From Candidatus Komeilibacteria bacterium CG11_big_fil_rev_8_21_14_0_20_36_20 (GTDB lineage: Bacteria; Patescibacteriota; Patescibacteriia; UBA1558; GWA2-36-10): a stretch of DNA of 64,000 bases. The stretch is from contig PCWQ01000007.1 in assembly GCA_002787405.1 (NCBI GenBank), positions 31,296 through 95,295 on the forward strand, in the 5' to 3' direction. The notes under the pieces were generated by a model. The model was not told where the DNA came from. It ran no database searches and saw nothing but the letters and a program-made list of their open reading frames with translations. A program made the translations under genes and the position numbers. This document shows positions 8,094 through 53,994 of the stretch, piece after piece. How positions within the stretch are numbered: position 1 is the stretch's first letter; each line of letters begins with the position of its first letter.

Positions 8094-9407
8094 TTAAGAC
8101 AATCTCTCGAAACTAGAATGCACCACTGGCCCTTCTAATAAATCATAAAGTTTATGTGATACAACCGCTTGCTCTAATAAATTACAAACCTTTTCTGCTG
8201 CCTTCACATATAATTTGGCATAATCTTCTGTGAGGCTATAACTAACATATATAGTAGCCGAAGCCAAAACGCCTCTTTTAAGCATTTCTTGAGTAAATAA
8301 GGTACGAATAGCTTGACTATCTTTACCATAATCAAAAAAAAGATGAATCAATGGCGGTAATCCACTAATCTTAAGTTTCAAACCGCTATTTTCAGCTGAT
8401 GTCTTTAATCCTTTTATTATTAAGCGTCCAATTTTATCAAGCTGTTTAGGGACATCTTTGTCTATCATCTTCTTAATGGTCGTTATAGCCGCCATTGGGC
8501 CAACCCTCTCTGTCCAATAAGAACTGCTAATAAATGAAGTTTGAGCCGCTTGCATAACATTCCTATTGCCAATAATAGCCGCCATTGGGAAACCATTGCT
8601 CATTCCCTTAGCAAAAACAGCTATGTCAGGATTTACGTCGTATTTTAGATGAGCACCCCCAACATTAAGACGCCAAGCAATGGTTACTTCATCAAAAATG
8701 AGAACCGCTCCAATTTTATCAGCCAGATTTCTTATTTTTTTTAAAAAATCATCCTCTGGCTCATCATTCCTTAAAGGCTCCATAACAATTGCGCCAATAT
8801 CATTGTTTTTTAAAACAATATCCTCTAACTCCTTTATTTTATTATAGTGAAAAGGGATCGCTGTGCCAGCCAGCCCTCTTGGCACGCCCCTTGGCTCTAA
8901 TCCTGCTAATAAATGCCCATCCAGATGTTTATCGTTAAATAAATTAGCAGCTAAATACCAATCATGCCAACCATGATAGCCACAAAAAGCAATCTTATCT
9001 TTCCCTGAATATGCCCGAGCGATTCTGACAGCTACTGCCATTGCTTCTCCGCCACCTCTGGTATATCTAACCATCTCGGCCCAAGGATGCAATTTACATA
9101 GCAACTTCGCCAATTCTACATCTTCAGGAGAATTGAGTGTACAGATAGAACCTGATCTAATTACTTTTTCTACTGCTTCATTGACATCTGGATCGGCATA
9201 ACCCAATATACAAGCACCGACGCTAGCATAAGTATCAATATATTCATTGCCATCTAAATCCCAAACTTTAACGCCTTCCGCTTTTTTAAAATAAGAAGGC
9301 CAATGTTCTGGCAAAAACATCTCTGAACGTTTTGATAGTAATTGTGTTCCACCTGGAATAATTTTCTTTGCTTCGTTCCATAATAGAACACCTTTTGTTG
9401 ACTTCAT
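8094..9407 (-). CDS. class III aminotransferase (glutamate-1-semialdehyde aminomutase-like)
   Basis: 437 aa. The N-terminus (IIPGGTQLLSKR...KAEGVKVWDLDGNEYIDTYASVGACILGY) matches HemL-type PLP-dependent enzymes. Confidence 0.8.
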   Translation of the reverse strand: MKSTKGVLLWNEAKKIIPGGTQLLSKRSEMFLPEHWPSYFKKAEGVKVWDLDGNEYIDTYASVGACILGYADPDVNEAVEKVIRSGSICTLNSPEDVELAKLLCKLHPWAEMVRYTRGGGEAMAVAVRIARAYSGKDKIAFCGYHGWHDWYLAANLFNDKHLDGHLLAGLEPRGVPRGLAGTAIPFHYNKIKELEDIVLKNNDIGAIVMEPLRNDEPEDDFLKKIRNLADKIGAVLIFDEVTIAWRLNVGGAHLKYDVNPDIAVFAKGMSNGFPMAAIIGNRNVMQAAQTSFISSSYWTERVGPMAAITTIKKMIDKDVPKQLDKIGRLIIKGLKTSAENSGLKLKISGLPPLIHLFFDYGKDSQAIRTLFTQEMLKRGVLASATIYVSYSLTEDYAKLYVKAAEKVCNLLEQAVVSHKLYDLLEGPVVHSSFERLS

Positions 9408-10254
9408 AGCTGTTTGTTTTAAGTATAAAATAATTTTCTAAAAATAAAGCATCTAGCTCAGTATTGTTAAAAAGATTTAATGCCTGCTCAGGATTCTCCA
9501 CAATAGGTTCTCCCCTACCATTCATTGATGTATTCATAACAAGAGGGATCCCTGTAATTTTGTAAAATTCTTTTATTAAATTGTAATATGATTCATTAAC
9601 ATCTTTTTTTACAACTTGTGGTCGCGTTGAATTATCAACATGTAAAGCCGCCGGAATTTTATCTTGCATATTATTTTGTATATATCTAGCAATAATCATA
9701 AAATCGGCACAATTGGGAATATAGCCCTGGAGATATTTATGTTTATATTCATCTAAAATTGATACAGCAAGTGGCCGCCACTGTTCTCTATATTTTATTG
9801 TATTCATTCTTTCTTTGTTTTTCTTTTTTGTTGGGTTTGATAAGATACTTCTGTTCCCTAAAGCTCTTGCACCAGCTTCCATTTTGCCATTAAACCAACC
9901 AATAACTTTATCCTCAGCGATTAACTTTGCTGCTTGCTTATATGGTTCTTTAAGATATTCAAATCTTAGACCCTTAGATTTTAGCATTTTTTCTATATAA
10001 CTATTACTATATTTAGTGCCATAATATAGATGGCGCATCTCTTCAAAATCATTCCTCCCAGTTTTTTCAACATATTTCAACATTGCTGAACCAATCATAC
10101 TACCATTATCTCCAGCTAAAGGCTGGATAAAAATATCTTGAATCAACCCTGACTCTAAGATTTTACTATTCATAACGCAGTTCATCGCCACGCCACCAGC
10201 TAGACATAAATTATTACTTTTAAATTTCCTTTTCCCTATTTTTATTAGAATCAA
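9286..10254 (-). CDS. carbamoyltransferase (NodU/CmcH family), C-terminal part of a gene split by a frameshift
   Basis: Contains NLCLAGGVAMNCVMN, typical of O-carbamoyltransferases. Reading on in the +1 frame from the upstream ORF across the T8 run at 10323..10330 gives an uninterrupted sequence. Confidence 0.75.
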   Translation of the reverse strand: MILIKIGKRKFKSNNLCLAGGVAMNCVMNSKILESGLIQDIFIQPLAGDNGSMIGSAMLKYVEKTGRNDFEEMRHLYYGTKYSNSYIEKMLKSKGLRFEYLKEPYKQAAKLIAEDKVIGWFNGKMEAGARALGNRSILSNPTKKKNKERMNTIKYREQWRPLAVSILDEYKHKYLQGYIPNCADFMIIARYIQNNMQDKIPAALHVDNSTRPQVVKKDVNESYYNLIKEFYKITGIPLVMNTSMNGRGEPIVENPEQALNLFNNTELDALFLENYFILKTNSYEVNKRCSIMERSKENYSRWNTITIKTFRDVFARTLAFLF

Positions 10255-10268
10255 TAATACTTCTTCAA

Positions 10269-11090
10269 CTAAATCCTGGACCGCATAAGCAAGATCAACA
10301 TATTTCTTATCAAAATTTTCTCTTTTTTTTCTTCTAAAATATCAATTGCAAATGTAGCTTTAATATAATTGAATCTATCTTTCCAAGACGATGCTAATTT
10401 CTTGTGTCTTATTTGATAACCACTTCTTCTAAGTTTCATTATTTTTTTATCAAATAACTTTTTTATTTTTTTATCATAATTTCCATAAGCAGATAGTCCC
10501 ATAGTTTGACCTTCACCACTTATTGGTTTAAAACCTAGGAATCCTGTTATATCGGTATATATTTCTCCAATCGAATTAGGCCAATCAAATACTTTAATTT
10601 CTTTGAGCTTACCCTCCACTCCTTTAAAAATAACGGAAGATTCTTTTTCGCCAGCTCCATCTACTGTAATAACCAATGATTCATCAAACCCACTCAAATA
10701 GTAAGCTGATGCGGCGTGTGATAAGTGATGATTATAAAATGTAATTGGTGGCATTTTTAAATTACCAAATTTTAATTTAAGTTGATCATATATAATATCT
10801 TTTGCCTCTAATATCACCTCGCTATGTTTTAATCCTTTTTGTTTTACAAAAGGCCATTGTGTGGGTTCAAAAGGAATGGTGATATAATCTATATCAGATA
10901 AAGTTAAATTATTCATATTAAGTGTTATACTAATAGCATTAATAGGAAATTGTCCTTCTGCGTGCTTAACCCTAGTAAATCTTTCCTCTTCTAAAATTGA
11001 TATAATTTTGTTATCTTCCAATAAAATTACCGCCCCATCGTGAGTTCCAAAATAAGGTGGTATGCTTGGTTTAAAAGATAAAATTTTCAT
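10269..11090 (-). CDS. carbamoyltransferase (NodU/CmcH family), N-terminal part of a gene split by a frameshift
   Basis: The N-terminus reads MKILSFKPSIPPYFGTHDGAVILLEDNKIISILEEERFTRVKH, as in the carbamoyltransferase N-terminal domain. With 9286..10254 the total is about 595 aa, a normal size for the family. Confidence 0.75.
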   Translation of the reverse strand: MKILSFKPSIPPYFGTHDGAVILLEDNKIISILEEERFTRVKHAEGQFPINAISITLNMNNLTLSDIDYITIPFEPTQWPFVKQKGLKHSEVILEAKDIIYDQLKLKFGNLKMPPITFYNHHLSHAASAYYLSGFDESLVITVDGAGEKESSVIFKGVEGKLKEIKVFDWPNSIGEIYTDITGFLGFKPISGEGQTMGLSAYGNYDKKIKKLFDKKIMKLRRSGYQIRHKKLASSWKDRFNYIKATFAIDILEEKKEKILIRNMLILLMRSRI

Positions 11091-11106: not shown

Positions 11107-11948
11107 ATTAAAATTTATTATATATTTTTTTCTTTCTGCAATAACCATAAAAGTATAGCTTTTTGTATATGTAATCTATTTTCAGATTGATTAAAAATAA
11201 TAGAATTATCGTGATTAATTGCATCACGAGAAATTTCATATCCTATTAACTTTACCATCAGTAAAAAATTCCATATTCATCCAAGTATCTGTATGTATAT
11301 AATTAACATCTTTTAATGCCTCTTGTAAATCTAGTGTTCTAATAACTAACCCAGTTGATTCAGCTTGTTTATTAAGCTTTGCATCAATGCTGCTTTTATC
11401 TGCTTTAGGGGAAACAATTATAAATTGAATGCCTAATTTTACACAGGCTAACATTAAAGTATTTGATACATTATTTTCAATCCCTAACCAAGCTACTCTT
11501 TTAATTTTATCTACCCCTTGGAATGCTCTGCCATAGTTAATATATCACTCAAGGCTTGGGAAGGATGATATTTTTCACTACATCCATCAATAACTGGAAT
11601 TTGATTATGCTTAGCAGCACTCAAGATATCATCTGTATTCACGGCACGAAACATTAAAATATCGCCAAAATTCATCATTGATTTTATTTCATCATTGAAA
11701 TCTGTTATAGAAAACTGAGTTGTTCGTATATCTATAAAAATAGCGTGACCACCTAGTTCGGTCATGGCTGTCTCATAAGACAATCGAGTTCTTGTAGATG
11801 TTTTTTGAAATAACATGAGTAAGGTTTGATTATGTAAATAATCTGGCAAATAATTTTTCTTTCTTTGCTTTTTTAATTTTTGTGCTAAAGTTAATATAGA
11901 TAAAATATCTTCCTTGCTTTGCTCTTTAAGAGAAATTAAATGTCTCAT
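11107..11948 (-). pseudogene. ornithine/aspartate carbamoyltransferase-like gene disrupted by at least two frameshifts
   Basis: STRTR and HPSQ motifs are found in ORF 11511..11948. The polypeptide continues in other frames (KIKRVAWLGIENNVSNT...VSP, then ISRDAINHDNSIIFNQSENRLHIQKAILLWLL). The HCLP active-site motif is replaced by EFFT. Confidence 0.65.
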
Positions 11949-28017: not shown

Positions 28018-28728
28018 TCATGGACGTTCAATAGATCTTAAATAATTTGAACATTCTTCATTGTCAATGTTATCTAATTTAAGTTTACCGTCCGTTTTTT
28101 CAAAAAGATATTCCTCTACTTCCTTATAATATCTATGCCATTTATCATAAAATTTCTGATCTTTAGGAACCTTTGCTTTATTTTTGTCTCGTGCTTCTTC
28201 AAGAGAAACTACATTAACATTTCTTACTCTAGCATCAGAATAGGCTATTATAAGTTGTTCTAGGGGTATCTCATCAATTGCTTTACTTCGTGCCTCATTA
28301 TCTTCAATATAAATTTCAGGTACTCGACCTGCATATGAAGCAGTTTGTATGAATTGTTCTGAATAACCAGCCTGTTCTAGTAAAATTGTAAGTCGACCCT
28401 CTTTTTTTTCAGTATCGTATCTAACATCCCTTTCTATATCTATCCTTTTACTGACATCATGTAAAATAGCAGCTGACTCAACTAGTTCTGGATCAATGTC
28501 TTGGCCAGCTGTTTTTAATTTTTCTGCTAAAAATCCGGCTAAAGAACTAACCACCATAAGATGTTCTGTAACATTACGCCAATCCTTATTATCTTTTCCT
28601 AAGAGTCCGGCCTTTTTAATAACTCTCATTTCTTTCATATGCCTCTTAGCAAAGCTATCCCAAGTCTTTATTTTTTCTTTTTCCCCACCAGTAAATTGAG
28701 TAGTATCTATATTAAATTTTTCTGGCAT
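28018..28728 (-). CDS. HD-domain phosphohydrolase
   Basis: The segment VTEHLMVVSSLAGFLA...AAILHDVSKR fits an HD motif. Confidence 0.55.
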   Translation of the reverse strand: MPEKFNIDTTQFTGGEKEKIKTWDSFAKRHMKEMRVIKKAGLLGKDNKDWRNVTEHLMVVSSLAGFLAEKLKTAGQDIDPELVESAAILHDVSKRIDIERDVRYDTEKKEGRLTILLEQAGYSEQFIQTASYAGRVPEIYIEDNEARSKAIDEIPLEQLIIAYSDARVRNVNVVSLEEARDKNKAKVPKDQKFYDKWHRYYKEVEEYLFEKTDGKLKLDNIDNEECSNYLRSIERP

Positions 28729-28806: not shown

Positions 28807-28818
28807 CCCCCCCCCCCC
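28807..28818. repeat. C12 homopolymer tract (G12 on the coding strand) about 80 nt upstream of the HD-domain gene start
   Basis: Twelve consecutive C residues were counted directly in a region that is otherwise about 25% GC. Confidence 0.9.
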
Positions 28819-28864: not shown

Positions 28865-29968
28865 TTAATTTTTCTGACTATAGTATTCATAATATTTACT
28901 AACTGTCTTATACCAAGAAAATCTACTGGCAAATTCTTGAGAATGATGTTTCCACTGCTCTTGATCTGATGCTAACACTTTTATAATTTTATCATAGATA
29001 TCATTAGGTTGTCTCTGCTCGGCCAGATATCCGTTATAGCCATTCTGCAAAGCGTCTTCTATCCCACAATTTTTACTGCCAATGACTGGTAAACCAAAAG
29101 TTGCAGCCTCCAAAAAGACCAAGCCGAATCCTTCAAAATAATCACCGTTATTAACTGAAGTCATAATAAAAACATCAGATCTTTGATAAAAAAAAGATAA
29201 AACCTTGTCGCTCGCTTTATTGATGATGATGACATTATCAGAAATTTTATTGTTATGGCAATATTTCTTTATCTTATCAACATATTTTTTGTCAGCATCA
29301 GAACCGATGATAAAGTATCTAAAATCAGGATATTTTGATTTTAATTGCGTTATAGCTTGTAAACTATAATACTGGCCTTTTCTGCTCTTGATGGCGCCGA
29401 CTGTCAAAAATACAGGATAATGGTCTTTCAGCTTGTATTCTATTTTAAATTTACTTACCTCTTCATCAGACAATAAATTTAATCTCGTGGCACCCAACAA
29501 GACAGTTAATAAATTAGATGGTTTTAGCTTTTCTGATATTTTCTTTTTGGTGTAATCACTAATGCAAAAAATTTTTTCTGCCCTGATGAATGCTTTTTTC
29601 ATCAACCATTTTTTGCATTTAAAGTTAAACGGATCCACCGAATAAGTGCCTACACCACTAATAAATAATTTTTTATTCCTCCCTAAGGAGGAAAAGTAAC
29701 CATAAACGGCATAAGGCCAACCATCAAAGGCATGAATAATATCAAAGTCTTTGGCTAGTTTTCTGACTTTGAAAATATTACTTATTAATTTAAAAACGGA
29801 AATAGTGGGAGATAAAATATTCAGTTCATTGCTCTGATTGCTCCCTTTTTCCGTCACTACTTTATAGACCAGACCAAACTTAAGATACTCCTTAAGAATT
29901 GAAGAAGAATATCTGCCCCAACCGGATTTATTATTTATATCATGAGTAATAACTAGAATTTTTATCAT
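28865..29968 (-). CDS. family 4 glycosyltransferase
   Basis: A GT4 C-terminal motif reads EGFGLVFLEAATFGLPVIGS. Confidence 0.8.
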   Translation of the reverse strand: MIKILVITHDINNKSGWGRYSSSILKEYLKFGLVYKVVTEKGSNQSNELNILSPTISVFKLISNIFKVRKLAKDFDIIHAFDGWPYAVYGYFSSLGRNKKLFISGVGTYSVDPFNFKCKKWLMKKAFIRAEKIFCISDYTKKKISEKLKPSNLLTVLLGATRLNLLSDEEVSKFKIEYKLKDHYPVFLTVGAIKSRKGQYYSLQAITQLKSKYPDFRYFIIGSDADKKYVDKIKKYCHNNKISDNVIIINKASDKVLSFFYQRSDVFIMTSVNNGDYFEGFGLVFLEAATFGLPVIGSKNCGIEDALQNGYNGYLAEQRQPNDIYDKIIKVLASDQEQWKHHSQEFASRFSWYKTVSKYYEYYSQKN

Positions 29969-50190: not shown

Positions 50191-53100
50191 TTAACCTGAC
50201 CAGCTAATAGTATAACTTGGAGTTGACGTAGTGACAGCTCCTAAGCCGGATACGAGGTATCCATTATACCATTGTCCGTATTCTGTAGCGGTAGCTCCTG
50301 TTGTGTCTATACCTCTACCTTTATAGTTGTCTGACCAGACAAAGTTACCTTGATTTAAGGCGCCCCAAGCATCAGCATAGTTAGTATTAATATCTGTGGT
50401 TGGATTACCATAACCATCAGATGACGTCGAAGAAGCAGTATCACCTAACATAGCTACACTAACATTCTCTCCTGTTCCAGCAAGAGCAATAGTACAATTA
50501 TAGTAATAAGTCTCGCTAGAGCCGGCTGAAATTTGTAAAGGCTCTAATTCATCACTATGTGAAATAAGAGGATTATCAAAGGTGTAAGTATTATAGCCAC
50601 CATAGCCGTCACCTCCATCTAAATCGGTTGGATCAGCAGCAGTGCCGACAACATTACCGTCGCTATCTCTTAGATAACAACTGGTAACATTAATAGTACC
50701 ACCAGTAGCCACAGTAAGAGTAGCGCGATATAGCAACACTTCATTGCCCGAAGCATCAGCCGCCACATTAAAGGCATAAAGATCAATTGCGCCGTTAGTC
50801 AAAGATGTAGCTGCGCCTAAAGGAGCGCTGGCAGTTGAATGAGTAACAGTTGGCAAAGCTTTGTGAAGCACCATACCAGTAGTGGTTGAACCATTATAAG
50901 TCTCGGAAGTAACCACATCGTTAGAATCAACACCTGTGGTTTTAACACCATCTGTGCCGCCTAGACCAAATCTGACATCAGCGCCTGGAGTACCAGGAGC
51001 ATTATCAGCACTTGAACTAATAGTTCCTAGGTCAGCTTTAACAGTAATGGTTTTTGAACCGTCTTGAGGAATGGTTAAAGTGTTATTAGGAAAGTTGAAA
51101 GTATAGTATCCAGTTGATGGAATGGCAGCACTACCTAATAAAGTAGAACCGTCATATAAATACACTTTTGAGACATCCTGATAATTACCGGTAGCTGTAC
51201 CAGTAATATTACCGTCAGCCACAAAAACTTTCAATTGATCAAGATCAAGATTTTCATTAAACGCTTCCAGTCGAATATTACCAAAGGTTACTCCAGTAGC
51301 GCCGGCTCTAACAATTGCGGCGCTAGGATTGTTGTAAGTGCTAATGGTCAAAGTGCCGGCTGTGGCTACAGTCATGGTAGCACCCATGTCAGCGGTCAAA
51401 GTAACTATCCCTCTGTTTCCACTAGTAACACCATAAGCAATGACTGAAGCATTAGCTGTGGTGCTTACATCAACTAAACCAAAGATACCTACTTGTTCAG
51501 CAACAGCTCCGGTATTGACATCGGCAATCAACTGAATGGTCTTTGAAGTTCCTTTAGTAAGCACAATTGGATCATCAAAGGCAAAAGTTGAAGAAGCTGA
51601 ATCATAGCCATCGTTGTCTGCTGGGGCATCATTGACTGGACTCTTGGCTACACCACCGCTGCCAAAGACACCGTCATAAATAGTCAAGTTGGTGAAATTG
51701 GTGGAAGAGGCATGAACAACTATTGAAGTTATTCTAATATCTTCACCTGAATTTGTACCGTCAAAGTTCCAAGAACCCACTAAAACATCTTGAGCGCCGG
51801 CAATTACTGTAGCGTTGGCTGGCAAGGTGTTTCTAGTGACAGTCAAATTAGCGGCCTTAACTGTCTGGGTGTTGGTATCAACATTAGCTGCTGGGCTAGC
51901 GGTAATTGAATTACCGGTTACCTGACCAGTAGCAGTAATAGCGCTAGCTGCAGTTGCAAGTCTAGCATAAATAGTATCGTCAGTAGCCCATCCGCCGCTG
52001 ATATTCAAATTACCCATAATTGTATATTCACTCTCGCCAACTGGCAAAGTAAATGTATCCGTGAAAGCTACGGTTAAAGCATCATTGGTAATATCAGTTG
52101 GACCGGCCACAGTTACGCCATTGCTATCAACTATTTTAACTCCTTCCAAAGCATCTTCAATCTGAGCGCCAGAAGAAGAAACAATGGTTAAGGTCAATTC
52201 AGTGACGTCAATTGGTTCACCTTTAACCGTAAATTTAAAGGCGCCTAGAGTTTGGTCGCTTCCAACTGTAACATTGTCAGCACCAACACTGGATCCTCTT
52301 TCCACAGTCATATTACCATTAGCAATTTGAAATTCATTAGCGCTTAAGACTGGCTTAGTAGCAGCAGAACCAGTACCGCTATAGGTTGGGGTAATATTAT
52401 AACCATAAGTATTACCTTTTACTAATAGGTCTGTAGTTCTGTAGATACCTAAATCAACTGTTCGGGCTGAACCGCTCTCAACATCGGCTTGCACCTGATA
52501 TTGATAGGTCTGGCCTTTAGGAATAGTGGTGGCAGCAATACTAAAGTTAATATACTTACCATCAACCACACCGTCGGCGATCTTGGTACCGTCTTTTAAC
52601 AAGGCATATCCAGAAAGATCTTCACTTAAGCTGGCTGTACCTTCTTGGTAAACAGAAACCTGATTAAAGGTCACATCTTCAACTGAACCTGCTTGGATTT
52701 GGAAAGCAAAGAAAGTATAGTCCTGTTTGCCTACTTCAATGGTAGTAGAACTAGCATTGTTATAGGAACCTCTTTGAACAGTAGCTGTACCAATTGTAAT
52801 GGTATGGTTTAAAGTCTGGGTATTACCATAGGCAGGCAATGAGCCAATAACTGAACCACTACCTTTCAAAGTAATAGAAGCTAAACCAAGGGCTGGATTT
52901 TCACCAGCATAGCTGTCTAAAGAAGCAGCCATATTACCGGCTAAATAAATATATTGAGTGGTGTTGGCTGGGATGACAACATCCTTGGTAAAGGTAGCTT
53001 GGTGATTGGAGTTGAAAGTCTTTGAGTTTTGATCAAAAGGAATCATGGTGCTGCCGTCCAAAACATCAATGGTTGAAAAAGCAGCATCCTGCCCGATTCC

Positions 53101-53994
53101 ACCTCTTTGAACAACCATTGTGTCAATGGTTACTCCTTCGCTACCGGTGGTTAATTTAAGTTTGGTGAAAGGATATCTAGCGGCACCTTCAACTACAATG
53201 CCGGAAGCTGGCGTATCGCTAGCCAATGACACTGTTAGGTCGCCACCAGAAACTGGTCCACCGCCTTCACCCGGCATATAACCTGCCAGTTCTGTTTCTT
53301 CACCGGTGATTGATTCGCCGGTTGAATAACCATCTACGTTAGCCACGTCAATAACATAGTCATAACTAAAGTTATTGGCTTCAAAGGCATCAGAAGTAGC
53401 AAATGGTCGGACTGTATCGCCTTCACCGACATAATACAAATCCTCGCCCACCTGCAGCAATGTACCTTCTGGATACATAGTGCTTAAATCAGAACCAGTG
53501 GTATAGCTGGATGAAAAATAACCTGGGATAACATCTAGAACTCTAGATCCCCAATCGGCACCATACAAATCTTCAGCCACGTCTCCTGTAGGAATCCAGT
53601 GGAGTGTTCCACCCGGACCAACAGCATAAATTTTGGCTGTATTCATATGGGTAACCAATTTGGTTCCCGGTCGATAAGTCACGGCGCCGCCGTCTGCATA
53701 CAAATCCAGTTCAGCTACGTTAACTCTGACCACATTGTCAAAGTTATCATACCAAGTATTATATGTTTTTCCATCTGGGAAAACATATTTCATACCATCT
53801 GAACCAATGTAATAAACAGCTGCACCAGATTGACCTTCTAAGGCAAGCAAAGAGCCTGCTCCGTAATTACCAGCGGCTTTGGCTACTGGCGCAAAAGATA
53901 CGCCAACTGACCAAAGGGCAGTGGTAATCACCAAAGAAAATACAGCAAATTTCTTTAATAAGTGCATGTTTCTTTTTTTTAAAAAAGTCCCCAA
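50191..53994 (-). CDS. large secreted Thr/Ser/Gly/Ala/Val-rich surface protein (S-layer or adhesin-like, repeated beta-sandwich-like modules)
   Basis: 1267 aa. The signal-peptide-like N-terminus reads MGTFLKKRNMHLLKKFAVFSLVITTALWSVGVSFAPVAKAAG. Two related modules of about 90 aa are followed by more than 1000 aa of low-complexity T/S/G-rich repeats. GC content is about 45% against about 30% elsewhere. Confidence 0.7.
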   Translation of the reverse strand: MGTFLKKRNMHLLKKFAVFSLVITTALWSVGVSFAPVAKAAGNYGAGSLLALEGQSGAAVYYIGSDGMKYVFPDGKTYNTWYDNFDNVVRVNVAELDLYADGGAVTYRPGTKLVTHMNTAKIYAVGPGGTLHWIPTGDVAEDLYGADWGSRVLDVIPGYFSSSYTTGSDLSTMYPEGTLLQVGEDLYYVGEGDTVRPFATSDAFEANNFSYDYVIDVANVDGYSTGESITGEETELAGYMPGEGGGPVSGGDLTVSLASDTPASGIVVEGAARYPFTKLKLTTGSEGVTIDTMVVQRGGIGQDAAFSTIDVLDGSTMIPFDQNSKTFNSNHQATFTKDVVIPANTTQYIYLAGNMAASLDSYAGENPALGLASITLKGSGSVIGSLPAYGNTQTLNHTITIGTATVQRGSYNNASSTTIEVGKQDYTFFAFQIQAGSVEDVTFNQVSVYQEGTASLSEDLSGYALLKDGTKIADGVVDGKYINFSIAATTIPKGQTYQYQVQADVESGSARTVDLGIYRTTDLLVKGNTYGYNITPTYSGTGSAATKPVLSANEFQIANGNMTVERGSSVGADNVTVGSDQTLGAFKFTVKGEPIDVTELTLTIVSSSGAQIEDALEGVKIVDSNGVTVAGPTDITNDALTVAFTDTFTLPVGESEYTIMGNLNISGGWATDDTIYARLATAASAITATGQVTGNSITASPAANVDTNTQTVKAANLTVTRNTLPANATVIAGAQDVLVGSWNFDGTNSGEDIRITSIVVHASSTNFTNLTIYDGVFGSGGVAKSPVNDAPADNDGYDSASSTFAFDDPIVLTKGTSKTIQLIADVNTGAVAEQVGIFGLVDVSTTANASVIAYGVTSGNRGIVTLTADMGATMTVATAGTLTISTYNNPSAAIVRAGATGVTFGNIRLEAFNENLDLDQLKVFVADGNITGTATGNYQDVSKVYLYDGSTLLGSAAIPSTGYYTFNFPNNTLTIPQDGSKTITVKADLGTISSSADNAPGTPGADVRFGLGGTDGVKTTGVDSNDVVTSETYNGSTTTGMVLHKALPTVTHSTASAPLGAATSLTNGAIDLYAFNVAADASGNEVLLYRATLTVATGGTINVTSCYLRDSDGNVVGTAADPTDLDGGDGYGGYNTYTFDNPLISHSDELEPLQISAGSSETYYYNCTIALAGTGENVSVAMLGDTASSTSSDGYGNPTTDINTNYADAWGALNQGNFVWSDNYKGRGIDTTGATATEYGQWYNGYLVSGLGAVTTSTPSYTISWSG

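Follow-up and report, generated by a model that had tools for sequence, protein, structure and literature searches.

A decayed ornithine carbamoyltransferase-type gene beside a frameshifted O-carbamoyltransferase gene in a Komeilibacteria surface-glycan cluster

All known transcarbamylases share the carbamoyl-phosphate-binding motifs SxRT, HPxQ and HxLP, and the 240s loop sets the specificity for the second substrate; in ornithine carbamoyltransferase (OTCase), the DxxxSMG signature of this 240s (SMG) loop recognises ornithine (PMC4581275). Catabolic transcarbamylases phosphorolyse a ureido compound to yield carbamoyl phosphate, a reaction pulled by a downstream enzyme; of the three kinds of enzyme recognised as sources of carbamoyl phosphate they are one, a gene beside carbamate kinase is their hallmark, and phosphorolysis in vivo by higher-order oligomers or with cooperative kinetics is a further criterion for them (PMC6022934). 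Enzymes of the CmcH/NodU type use carbamoyl phosphate and ATP to carbamoylate hydroxyls, often on sugars (PMC6022934). Here, we analyzed a 64,000-nt stretch (hereafter the window) of contig PCWQ01000007.1 from Candidatus Komeilibacteria bacterium CG11_big_fil_rev_8_21_14_0_20_36_20, in which the remnant of an OTCase-type gene on the minus strand (11948..11118) is followed, 27 nt downstream, by a gene for a NodU/CmcH/TobZ-type O-carbamoyltransferase. We conclude that the two are very probably a real, dead pseudogene pair, and that the carbamoylation branch of a glycan cluster is switched off in this Komeilibacteria population.

The family to which the remnant belongs shares with OTCases (ArgF/ArcB; P. 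furiosus structure 1a1s) the unknotted two-domain build of ~315 aa, the FxKxSxRT motif with its Lys, STRTR, HPxQ, and an ENRLHxQKA C-terminus. It is unlike them in its 240s loop and third motif, described below, and in lying in pyrimidine, carbamate-kinase or NodU-type contexts, not in arg/arc operons; the window copy is, moreover, broken and wholly lacks the HxxP motif. With the catabolic enzymes (ArcB of the arginine deiminase pathway; putrescine carbamoyltransferase) the family shares an adjacent carbamate kinase gene in six loci. However, no arginine or agmatine deiminase was seen near the family, and the puller that we propose is an O-carbamoyltransferase or aspartate transcarbamylase (ATCase), not carbamate kinase. 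The neighbouring gene has Carbam_trans_N and Carbam_trans_C domains, as do CmcH/NodU/TobZ enzymes (NovN, GdmN, TobZ); unlike theirs, it is frameshifted, is paired with a transcarbamylase, and lies in a glycan cluster of a candidate phyla radiation (CPR) bacterium, not in an antibiotic or Nod-factor cluster.

An OTCase-type gene broken into three frames

A first-pass annotation, made from the letters of the window, had described a fragmented OTCase-like gene beside the carbamoyltransferase, with intact STRTR and HPxQ motifs in its first fragment; both parts of this description held. Three end-to-end frames (Table 1) together rebuild one OTCase-type protein. Fragment 1 covered the whole Pfam profile OTCace_N (positions 1-148 of 148, E = 4.5e-37), fragment 2 matched positions 20-86 of OTCace (E = 2.5e-07), and fragment 3 matched positions 124-157 of the 157 in OTCace (E = 4.8e-09); that is, OTCace_N is whole, OTCace is partial across two further frames, and no single frame holds both domains complete. 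The rebuilt conceptual protein found thousands of relatives in a protein search, the best being 313-337 aa long with E ~1e-120. Fragment 1 alone scored 126 bits against the OTCase equivalog model TIGR00658 (cutoff 280.85). Judged by these matches, which go far beyond chance, the remnant is a fragmented gene of an OTCase-branch transcarbamylase.

Fragment 1 aligns residue for residue with intact homologues, and the Lys at the third position of FxKxSxRT is kept, since FQKTSTRT is found both in the remnant and in the family consensus. Fragment 2 is the start of the second-substrate domain, VDKIKRVAWLGIENNV ... HTDTWMNMEFFTDGKV, and is out of frame relative to fragment 1. Fragment 3 reads IGYEISRDAINHDNSIIFNQSENRLHIQKAILLWLLQKEKNI, and then comes a stop codon.

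Table 1. Positions of the pseudogene pair, its motifs and lesions, and of minor features of the window
Feature	Position	Strand	Description
Fragment 1 frame	11948..11511 (coding 11514..11948)	minus	145 aa, complete carbamoyl-phosphate-binding domain
Fragment 2 frame	11454..11236 (homologous stretch 11248..11513)	minus	72 aa counted from ATG
Fragment 3 frame	11258..11118 (homologous stretch 11118..11246)	minus	46 aa, C-terminal end
STRTR (SxRT motif)	plus 11784-11798		Fragment 1, residues 51-55, within FQKTSTRTR
HPSQ (HPxQ motif)	plus 11556-11567		Fragment 1, residues 128-131
DTWMNME	plus 11269-11289		Fragment 2, variant 240s-loop motif
EFFT	plus 11260-11271		Fragment 2
G4 run (lesion 1)	plus CCCC 11514-11517		1-nt loss, G5 to G4
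Premature TAG	plus 11511-11513		Directly after the G run
O-carbamoyltransferase (NodU/CmcH/TobZ type)	9286..11090	minus	Pfam Carbam_trans_N + Carbam_trans_C
A8 run	plus T8 10323-10330	minus	Single frameshift (A9 to A8); three-frame translation, homopolymer list, tblastn frames
HD-domain gene	28018..28728
C12 homopolymer	28807-28818		G12 on the coding strand
GT1 glycosyltransferase gene	28865..29968
1267-aa open frame	50191-53994		42% GC; no Pfam match

The conceptual protein was aligned with 12, and later with 60, intact homologues, and the breaks were placed by three-frame translation. The first lesion is the loss of one nucleotide in the run AAGGGGTAG, which moves the frame from 0 to 2, a shift of -1. 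Homologues run uninterrupted over this point as MAEHSxG(V/I)xxxKKxxWLGIENNV, and the remnant needs one more G there. The second lesion is an internal deletion of ~122 nt (41 codons minus 1 nt), with its junction at plus 11244-11248, at about alignment columns 235-275; its size must be of the form 3n+2 because of the observed frames of the fragments. After HTDTWMNMEFFTDGKV (GTT, plus 11250-11248) there is one base, and then ATA GGA TAT GAA, which begins IGYEISRDAI. Between that V and I, homologues hold 41 residues, KPEFxxEYERRKKxFMPYQLNAxLIxxYAPxAKIMHCMPCH, namely the 240s loop to its end and the catalytic motif H-C-M-P, the counterpart of HxLP. HCMP is kept in all 60 intact homologues and is absent from the remnant; some homologues bear extra insertions in the deleted stretch, and none of the 60 is without it. 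No repeat flanks the deletion. An out-of-frame TGA (plus 11236-11238) follows the junction, and, as the two losses (-1 and -122) add up to -123, fragment 3 returns to the frame of fragment 1.

Two frame breaks had been noted in the first-pass annotation. The first does lie at the G4 run; the second, put near 11233, is the deletion junction with its nearby TGA. The proposal that a catalytic HCLP had been replaced by EFFT was mistaken: EFFT is part of the normal NMEFF(E/T)xGKV loop of intact homologues, and the motif of this family, HCMP, is deleted. Loss of this essential motif bears out the call of a pseudogene. The remnant has also drifted: among the 129 columns with conservation of 95% or more, it deviates at 8 (6.2%; one of the eight being an alignment effect at the deletion junction), against 1.5 +/- 1.2% and a maximum of 4.1% for the 60 intact homologues. 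This excess of substitutions at conserved columns is what relaxed selection on the remnant would produce.

It is very unlikely that the gene still functions, whether through frameshifting or slippage that joins the fragments, through a 145-aa domain that works alone, or as a phase-variable switch. Such a reading would gain from the completeness of fragment 1, with STRTR and HPSQ intact, from the frame shared by fragments 1 and 3, and from the position of both single-base lesions of the pair (the second is in the neighbouring gene) within homopolymers. However, the TAG comes directly after the G run, and even a perfect frame rescue would leave the protein without 41 residues, HCMP included. The deletion is irreversible, each fetched assembly of the population carries the same 'off' allele, and tracts of G4 and A8 are short for high-frequency phase variation. 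Moreover, carbamoyl phosphate is bound by SxRT, HPxQ and HxLP jointly with second-substrate loops that the other domain contributes, which makes both domains necessary (PMC4581275). An alternative genetic code was ruled out: the earliest premature stop is a TAG, and table 11 gives a densely coding window.

The broken gene recurs across assemblies. Its 145-aa product is found under three NCBI accessions from Candidatus Komeilibacteria metagenome-assembled genomes (MAGs), and in JGI, ENA and Logan assemblies (26 contigs); the index of the collection has this truncated product in 56 blocks, and the same fragments are called as genes in both the JGI and NCBI assemblies. Three loci fetched from different samples showed 100% identity to the window, along 2801 nt in two cases and 1542 nt in the third. 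The broken frame and the missing essential segment, in other words, recur in independent assemblies.

The first-pass annotation had offered poor assembly as its alternative, and this agreement between independent assemblies speaks against it. We regard it as extremely improbable that the true genome has an intact gene and that the breaks are homopolymer miscalls or come from a collapsed assembly. Single-base changes in homopolymers (G4 and A8) do account for two of the pair's three lesions, and all three are known from assembled sequence. But the third is a ~122-nt deletion with no flanking repeat, identity is complete across JGI and NCBI assemblies from different samples, the remnant carries surplus substitutions at conserved sites as well, and no other frame break was noticed among window open reading frames of at least 100 aa. 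Because ~122 nt including HCMP are gone, no base-call correction could restore the gene.

A protein search of 5.8 billion clusters and a genome-contig scan, from whose species representatives the genome of the window is absent, yielded no intact ortholog above 71-72% identity and none labelled Komeilibacteria. The check for an intact ortholog that was proposed with the first-pass annotation thus met intact relatives at 65-72% identity, and nothing closer. One ENA contig (L078, k141_327825; 1362 nt) was considered as an undeleted allele, as it is 99.86% identical to the pseudogene of the window, but it shares the G4 frameshift and leaves homology right after NMEFF, and is uninformative. Its departure lies ~20 nt before the deletion junction of the window, and is followed (933-1362) by a palindromic element, then by GC-rich sequence with an apparent small septum-formation-type gene. 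L078 is probably chimeric, or else records another rearrangement at this site.

The neighbouring O-carbamoyltransferase and the surrounding cluster

The O-carbamoyltransferase gene is also broken, into frames of 273 aa and 322 aa that match Carbam_trans_N (Pfam, E = 5.1e-33) and Carbam_trans_C (E = 1.4e-61). Its Kae1-like N-terminal and YrdC-like C-terminal domains do not stand in one polypeptide, as a -1 frameshift lies between them. The frame switch sits in GAAGAAAAAAAAGAG, where an intact homologue, used as tblastn query, matches in two frames, and one added A restores ...EEKKRENFDKKYVDL... An intact homologue matches the NovN, GdmN and TobZ structures with E values of 1e-76 to 1e-96. Upon comparison by eye, the conserved motifs and blocks of the gene remain, and because they remain its single lesion looks recent. 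We also noted that its frame extends 122 nt (9286-9407) into the start of a class-III aminotransferase gene, which is called at 437 aa by NCBI and at 408 aa by JGI; this overlapping tail is either natural or reflects loss of the original stop codon.

Both pseudogenes lie inside a ~40-kb cluster, mainly on the minus strand, of nonulosonic-acid and amidino-sugar surface-glycan genes that otherwise look intact. The cluster encodes NeuB, a PseB-like dehydratase, a cytidylyltransferase fused to a UDP-sugar dehydrogenase, a WbuX-type N-acetyl-sugar amidotransferase, the class-III aminotransferase, methyltransferases, four B12-radical-SAM enzymes, AsnB, many glycosyltransferases, an initiating sugar transferase, and Wzy_C proteins. 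The other cluster genes that were scanned against Pfam or NCBIfam gave ordinary domain matches, and none of them looked split; an Rfam scan of the window gave no match. SecY and DUF5667 mark the window as coming from a CPR bacterium, and the sources name Komeilibacteria.

All three lesions found within the window are confined to the OTCase-type gene and the adjacent O-carbamoyltransferase gene. In O-antigen and capsule loci, genes are inactivated by homopolymer slippage and small deletions. The present cluster resembles such loci in losing a decoration step through short-homopolymer frameshifts and a deletion, and in the restriction of the lesions to functionally linked neighbours within an otherwise intact locus. 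It differs in its host, an uncultured CPR bacterium, and in the step that is lost, namely carbamoylation together with a putative carbamoyl-phosphate partner. That a branch of the pathway is being lost, as had been supposed from the remnant, is supported by the frameshift in its neighbour and by the ordinary state of the other scanned cluster genes.

In our reading, replication slippage dropped one G from a G5 run in the OTCase-type gene, the ~122-nt deletion took 41 codons including those for H-C-M-P, and further substitutions at conserved sites have gathered since. The partner was inactivated by the loss of one base in an A9 run. Once one partner was dead the other would have been useless and free to decay. 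The transcarbamylase has two lesions and drift, compared with one lesion in the O-carbamoyltransferase, and this suggests, weakly, that the transcarbamylase died first.

There are caveats to reading the pair as dead. The homopolymer lengths rest on agreement between assemblies, not on reads. Due to the lack of a close relative (the best is 72% identical over aligned positions), neither a ratio of nonsynonymous to synonymous substitution rates (dN/dS) nor the ancestral or deleted sequence is obtainable. Finally, longer poly-A tracts in AT-rich endosymbionts allow transcriptional slippage to restore a shifted frame, and the O-carbamoyltransferase gene, whose sole lesion is in an A8 run, may retain low-level expression via slippage.

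The intact family and its genomic contexts

Intact relatives are ~315 aa long and share 65-72% of aligned positions with the remnant; their sources are CPR bacteria, DPANN archaea, or uncultured MAGs with generic or doubtful labels. The closest solved structures are OTCases (P. furiosus 1a1s, E = 1.7e-59), a match that is enough to fix the fold. An intact homologue, P0001, scored 285.7 bits against TIGR00658, slightly above the cutoff, and fell under the cutoffs of other OTCase models (NF001986, 289.5 versus 306). The profile comparison suggested with the first-pass annotation has thus put the family at the border of the OTCase models, and not with YgeW. A YgeW or knotted transcarbamylase, for which we considered a proline-rich loop, an extended 120s loop, a length of ~390 aa and the YgeW model cutoff, was rejected, as the models gave 39-42 bits against cutoffs of 453-500 and the proteins are ~315 aa long versus ~390 aa. 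Putrescine carbamoyltransferase was rejected too: the family has Lys, not Gln, in FxQxSxRT, scores 236 bits against 500 for TIGR04384, and is without the ~20 extra C-terminal residues at ~315 aa.

The 240s loop sets the family apart from OTCases. In place of DxxxSMG, the window has DTWMNME and all 60 homologues have D(T/A/S)Wx(N/D)ME (family form DTWx(N/D)ME); the loop is 8 residues longer than in the P. furiosus OTCase, and HCMP replaces HCLP in all 60. We noted that a GC-rich double-hairpin element of ~30 nt (TCCGCCnnnGGCGGA-TCCGCCTnnGGCGGA) recurs in CPR loci (L043 1880-1910; L078 933-965; L010 ~6476 and ~7388; several sites in L031; proteins P0008 and P0057). In several intact members it stands in frame within the 240s loop, right after NMEFF, and is read as SA(E/Q)GG(S/P)ASGG. 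The element resembles Rickettsia palindromic elements that insert into coding sequences, and none is present in the window. Across loci L006-L074, the family is common to CPR bacteria and DPANN archaea (Woesearchaeota, Nanoarchaeota) at 60-75% identity, and this sharing suggests inter-domain transfer.

We tabulated the gene contexts of 72 non-redundant CPR/DPANN loci. Pyrimidine genes accompany the family in 24 loci, 18 of them within operons pyrB-pyrI-pyrC-[X]-pyrK-pyrD/E/F and six with only a pyrB-like gene 4-5.5 kb off. A NodU/CmcH O-carbamoyltransferase gene lies on the same strand in 11 loci, with a gap of ~5-25 nt in five, and never together with pyrimidine genes. In six loci the family gene directly follows carbamate kinase, and two of these also have a second transcarbamylase of ~400 aa. 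The remaining 31 loci, some on short contigs, showed none of these contexts. Every partner in the classified contexts uses carbamoyl phosphate. Identity is equal within and between context classes (66-73%), so we take the members as a single family with a single job. The pairing of transcarbamylase and O-carbamoyltransferase is conserved, and both of its members are dead here. Glycan genes homologous to those of the window (17 tested) were found in 5 of the 11 O-carbamoyltransferase-linked loci, versus none of the 24 operon-type pyrimidine and carbamate-kinase loci. The occurrence of this highly conserved family in pyrimidine operons and beside carbamate kinase as well points to general carbamoyl-phosphate metabolism and not to a glycan-specific substrate.

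Some of these loci have further features. In Magasanikbacteria, pyrimidine genes form unusual fusions: dihydroorotase (pyrC) is fused in frame to the OTCase-type protein of the family (750 aa in total; L050 8732-10981) and is followed by an 844-aa triple fusion of dihydroorotate (DHO) dehydrogenase, phosphoribosyltransferase and orotidine monophosphate (OMP) decarboxylase (L050 10995-13526); a 901-aa fusion in another Magasanikbacteria locus matches DHO-dehydrogenase and phosphoribosyltransferase domains (L005 8956-11661). The carbamate-kinase-linked loci also hold, besides the second transcarbamylase of ~400 aa, a conserved ~440-aa protein with a Rossmann-like VVIIGAAGRDF start and weak Pfam hits only (coordinates for the two proteins: L039 1042-2244; L049 7816-9018; L014 10945-12261; L031 7481-8797; L008 4752-6077).

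From its place in a glycan operon, the first-pass annotation had taken the gene as a marker of a novel sugar or amine modification. The presence of the same family in pyrimidine operons and beside carbamate kinase gives such a marker no support. In the more specific form of this idea, the ancestral enzyme carbamoylated the nitrogen of an amino sugar, or of some other glycan-pathway amine (N-carbamoylation), as a second modifier beside the O-carbamoyltransferase and not as its carbamoyl-phosphate-handling partner. The nearby class-III aminotransferase could make the amine acceptor within the glycan cluster, and diamino-acid transcarbamylases are known from antibiotic gene clusters (PMC4581275). 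The family, furthermore, is without DxxxSMG and has lengthened the very loop that sets second-substrate specificity (PMC4581275). Nevertheless, we consider N-carbamoylation unlikely. The family also occurs in the 24 pyrimidine and six carbamate-kinase loci, none of the 17 glycan genes was found near those tested, and its sequences do not subdivide by context. The score of an intact member lies barely above the NCBIfam OTCase equivalog cutoff (285.7 versus 280.85 bits), and OTCases are the best solved relatives.

A possible carbamoyl-phosphate partnership

We propose instead that the intact transcarbamylase would have acted on a common small metabolite, ornithine- or citrulline-like, and would have been coupled to its neighbour through carbamoyl phosphate. 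It would have freed carbamoyl phosphate by phosphorolysis of a citrulline-like ureido compound, and ATP-driven O-carbamoylation of a sugar hydroxyl would have consumed this carbamoyl phosphate irreversibly, pulling the phosphorolysis forward. That the transcarbamylase supplied carbamoyl phosphate to the O-carbamoyltransferase is a plausible, tentatively held proposal, whose chances we put slightly below even. Several observations count against it. Phosphorolysis of citrulline is thermodynamically unfavourable (PMC6022934), and no arginine deiminase was seen nearby. In 4 of the 18 pyrimidine-operon loci carB is in the same operon, and because carB is present a second source of carbamoyl phosphate would be redundant there; for the same reason, a role of the family as a replacement for carbamoyl-phosphate synthetase (CPSase) was weakened as a candidate. 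Lastly, the loop, with DxxxNME and 8 more residues, departs from the DxxxSMG of OTCases, so that an ornithine- or citrulline-like second substrate is a tentative assignment.

A broader form of the supplier proposal is possible but more doubtful. In it, a CPR/DPANN-specific transcarbamylase family, marked by DxxxNME and HCMP, makes carbamoyl phosphate or hands it to a co-encoded consumer (ATCase, carbamate kinase or a NodU-type enzyme), and the pair seen here would be an undescribed two-gene module for glycan carbamoylation. The literature that we searched, which did not extend to subscription journals, held nothing specific on the family or its NodU-type pairing in CPR organisms, and no description of its context pattern. 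If such a carbamoyl-phosphate-handling module exists, the joint decay in Komeilibacteria would be natural evidence that both genes cooperate; the joint death of adjacent partners in itself supports a functional link between the transcarbamylase and the O-carbamoyltransferase.

Taken by itself, the remnant is one more pseudogene and ordinary as such. Its analysis records that glycan carbamoylation was dropped in a groundwater CPR population, and corrects the database view, since in public records each fragment stands as a hypothetical or domain-containing protein of its own. For the intact family, pipelines call the CPR/DPANN proteins 'ornithine carbamoyltransferase', yet the genes consistently sit with users of carbamoyl phosphate, apart from arginine genes; the family may therefore be misread when the metabolism of these reduced organisms is reconstructed.

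Elsewhere in the window, we noted a C12 homopolymer between a GT1 glycosyltransferase gene and an HD-domain gene (Table 1), which could be a slippage-prone tract or a weak assembly point. Finally, the 1267-aa open frame listed in Table 1 stands out in base composition, as GC is ~32% elsewhere in the window.

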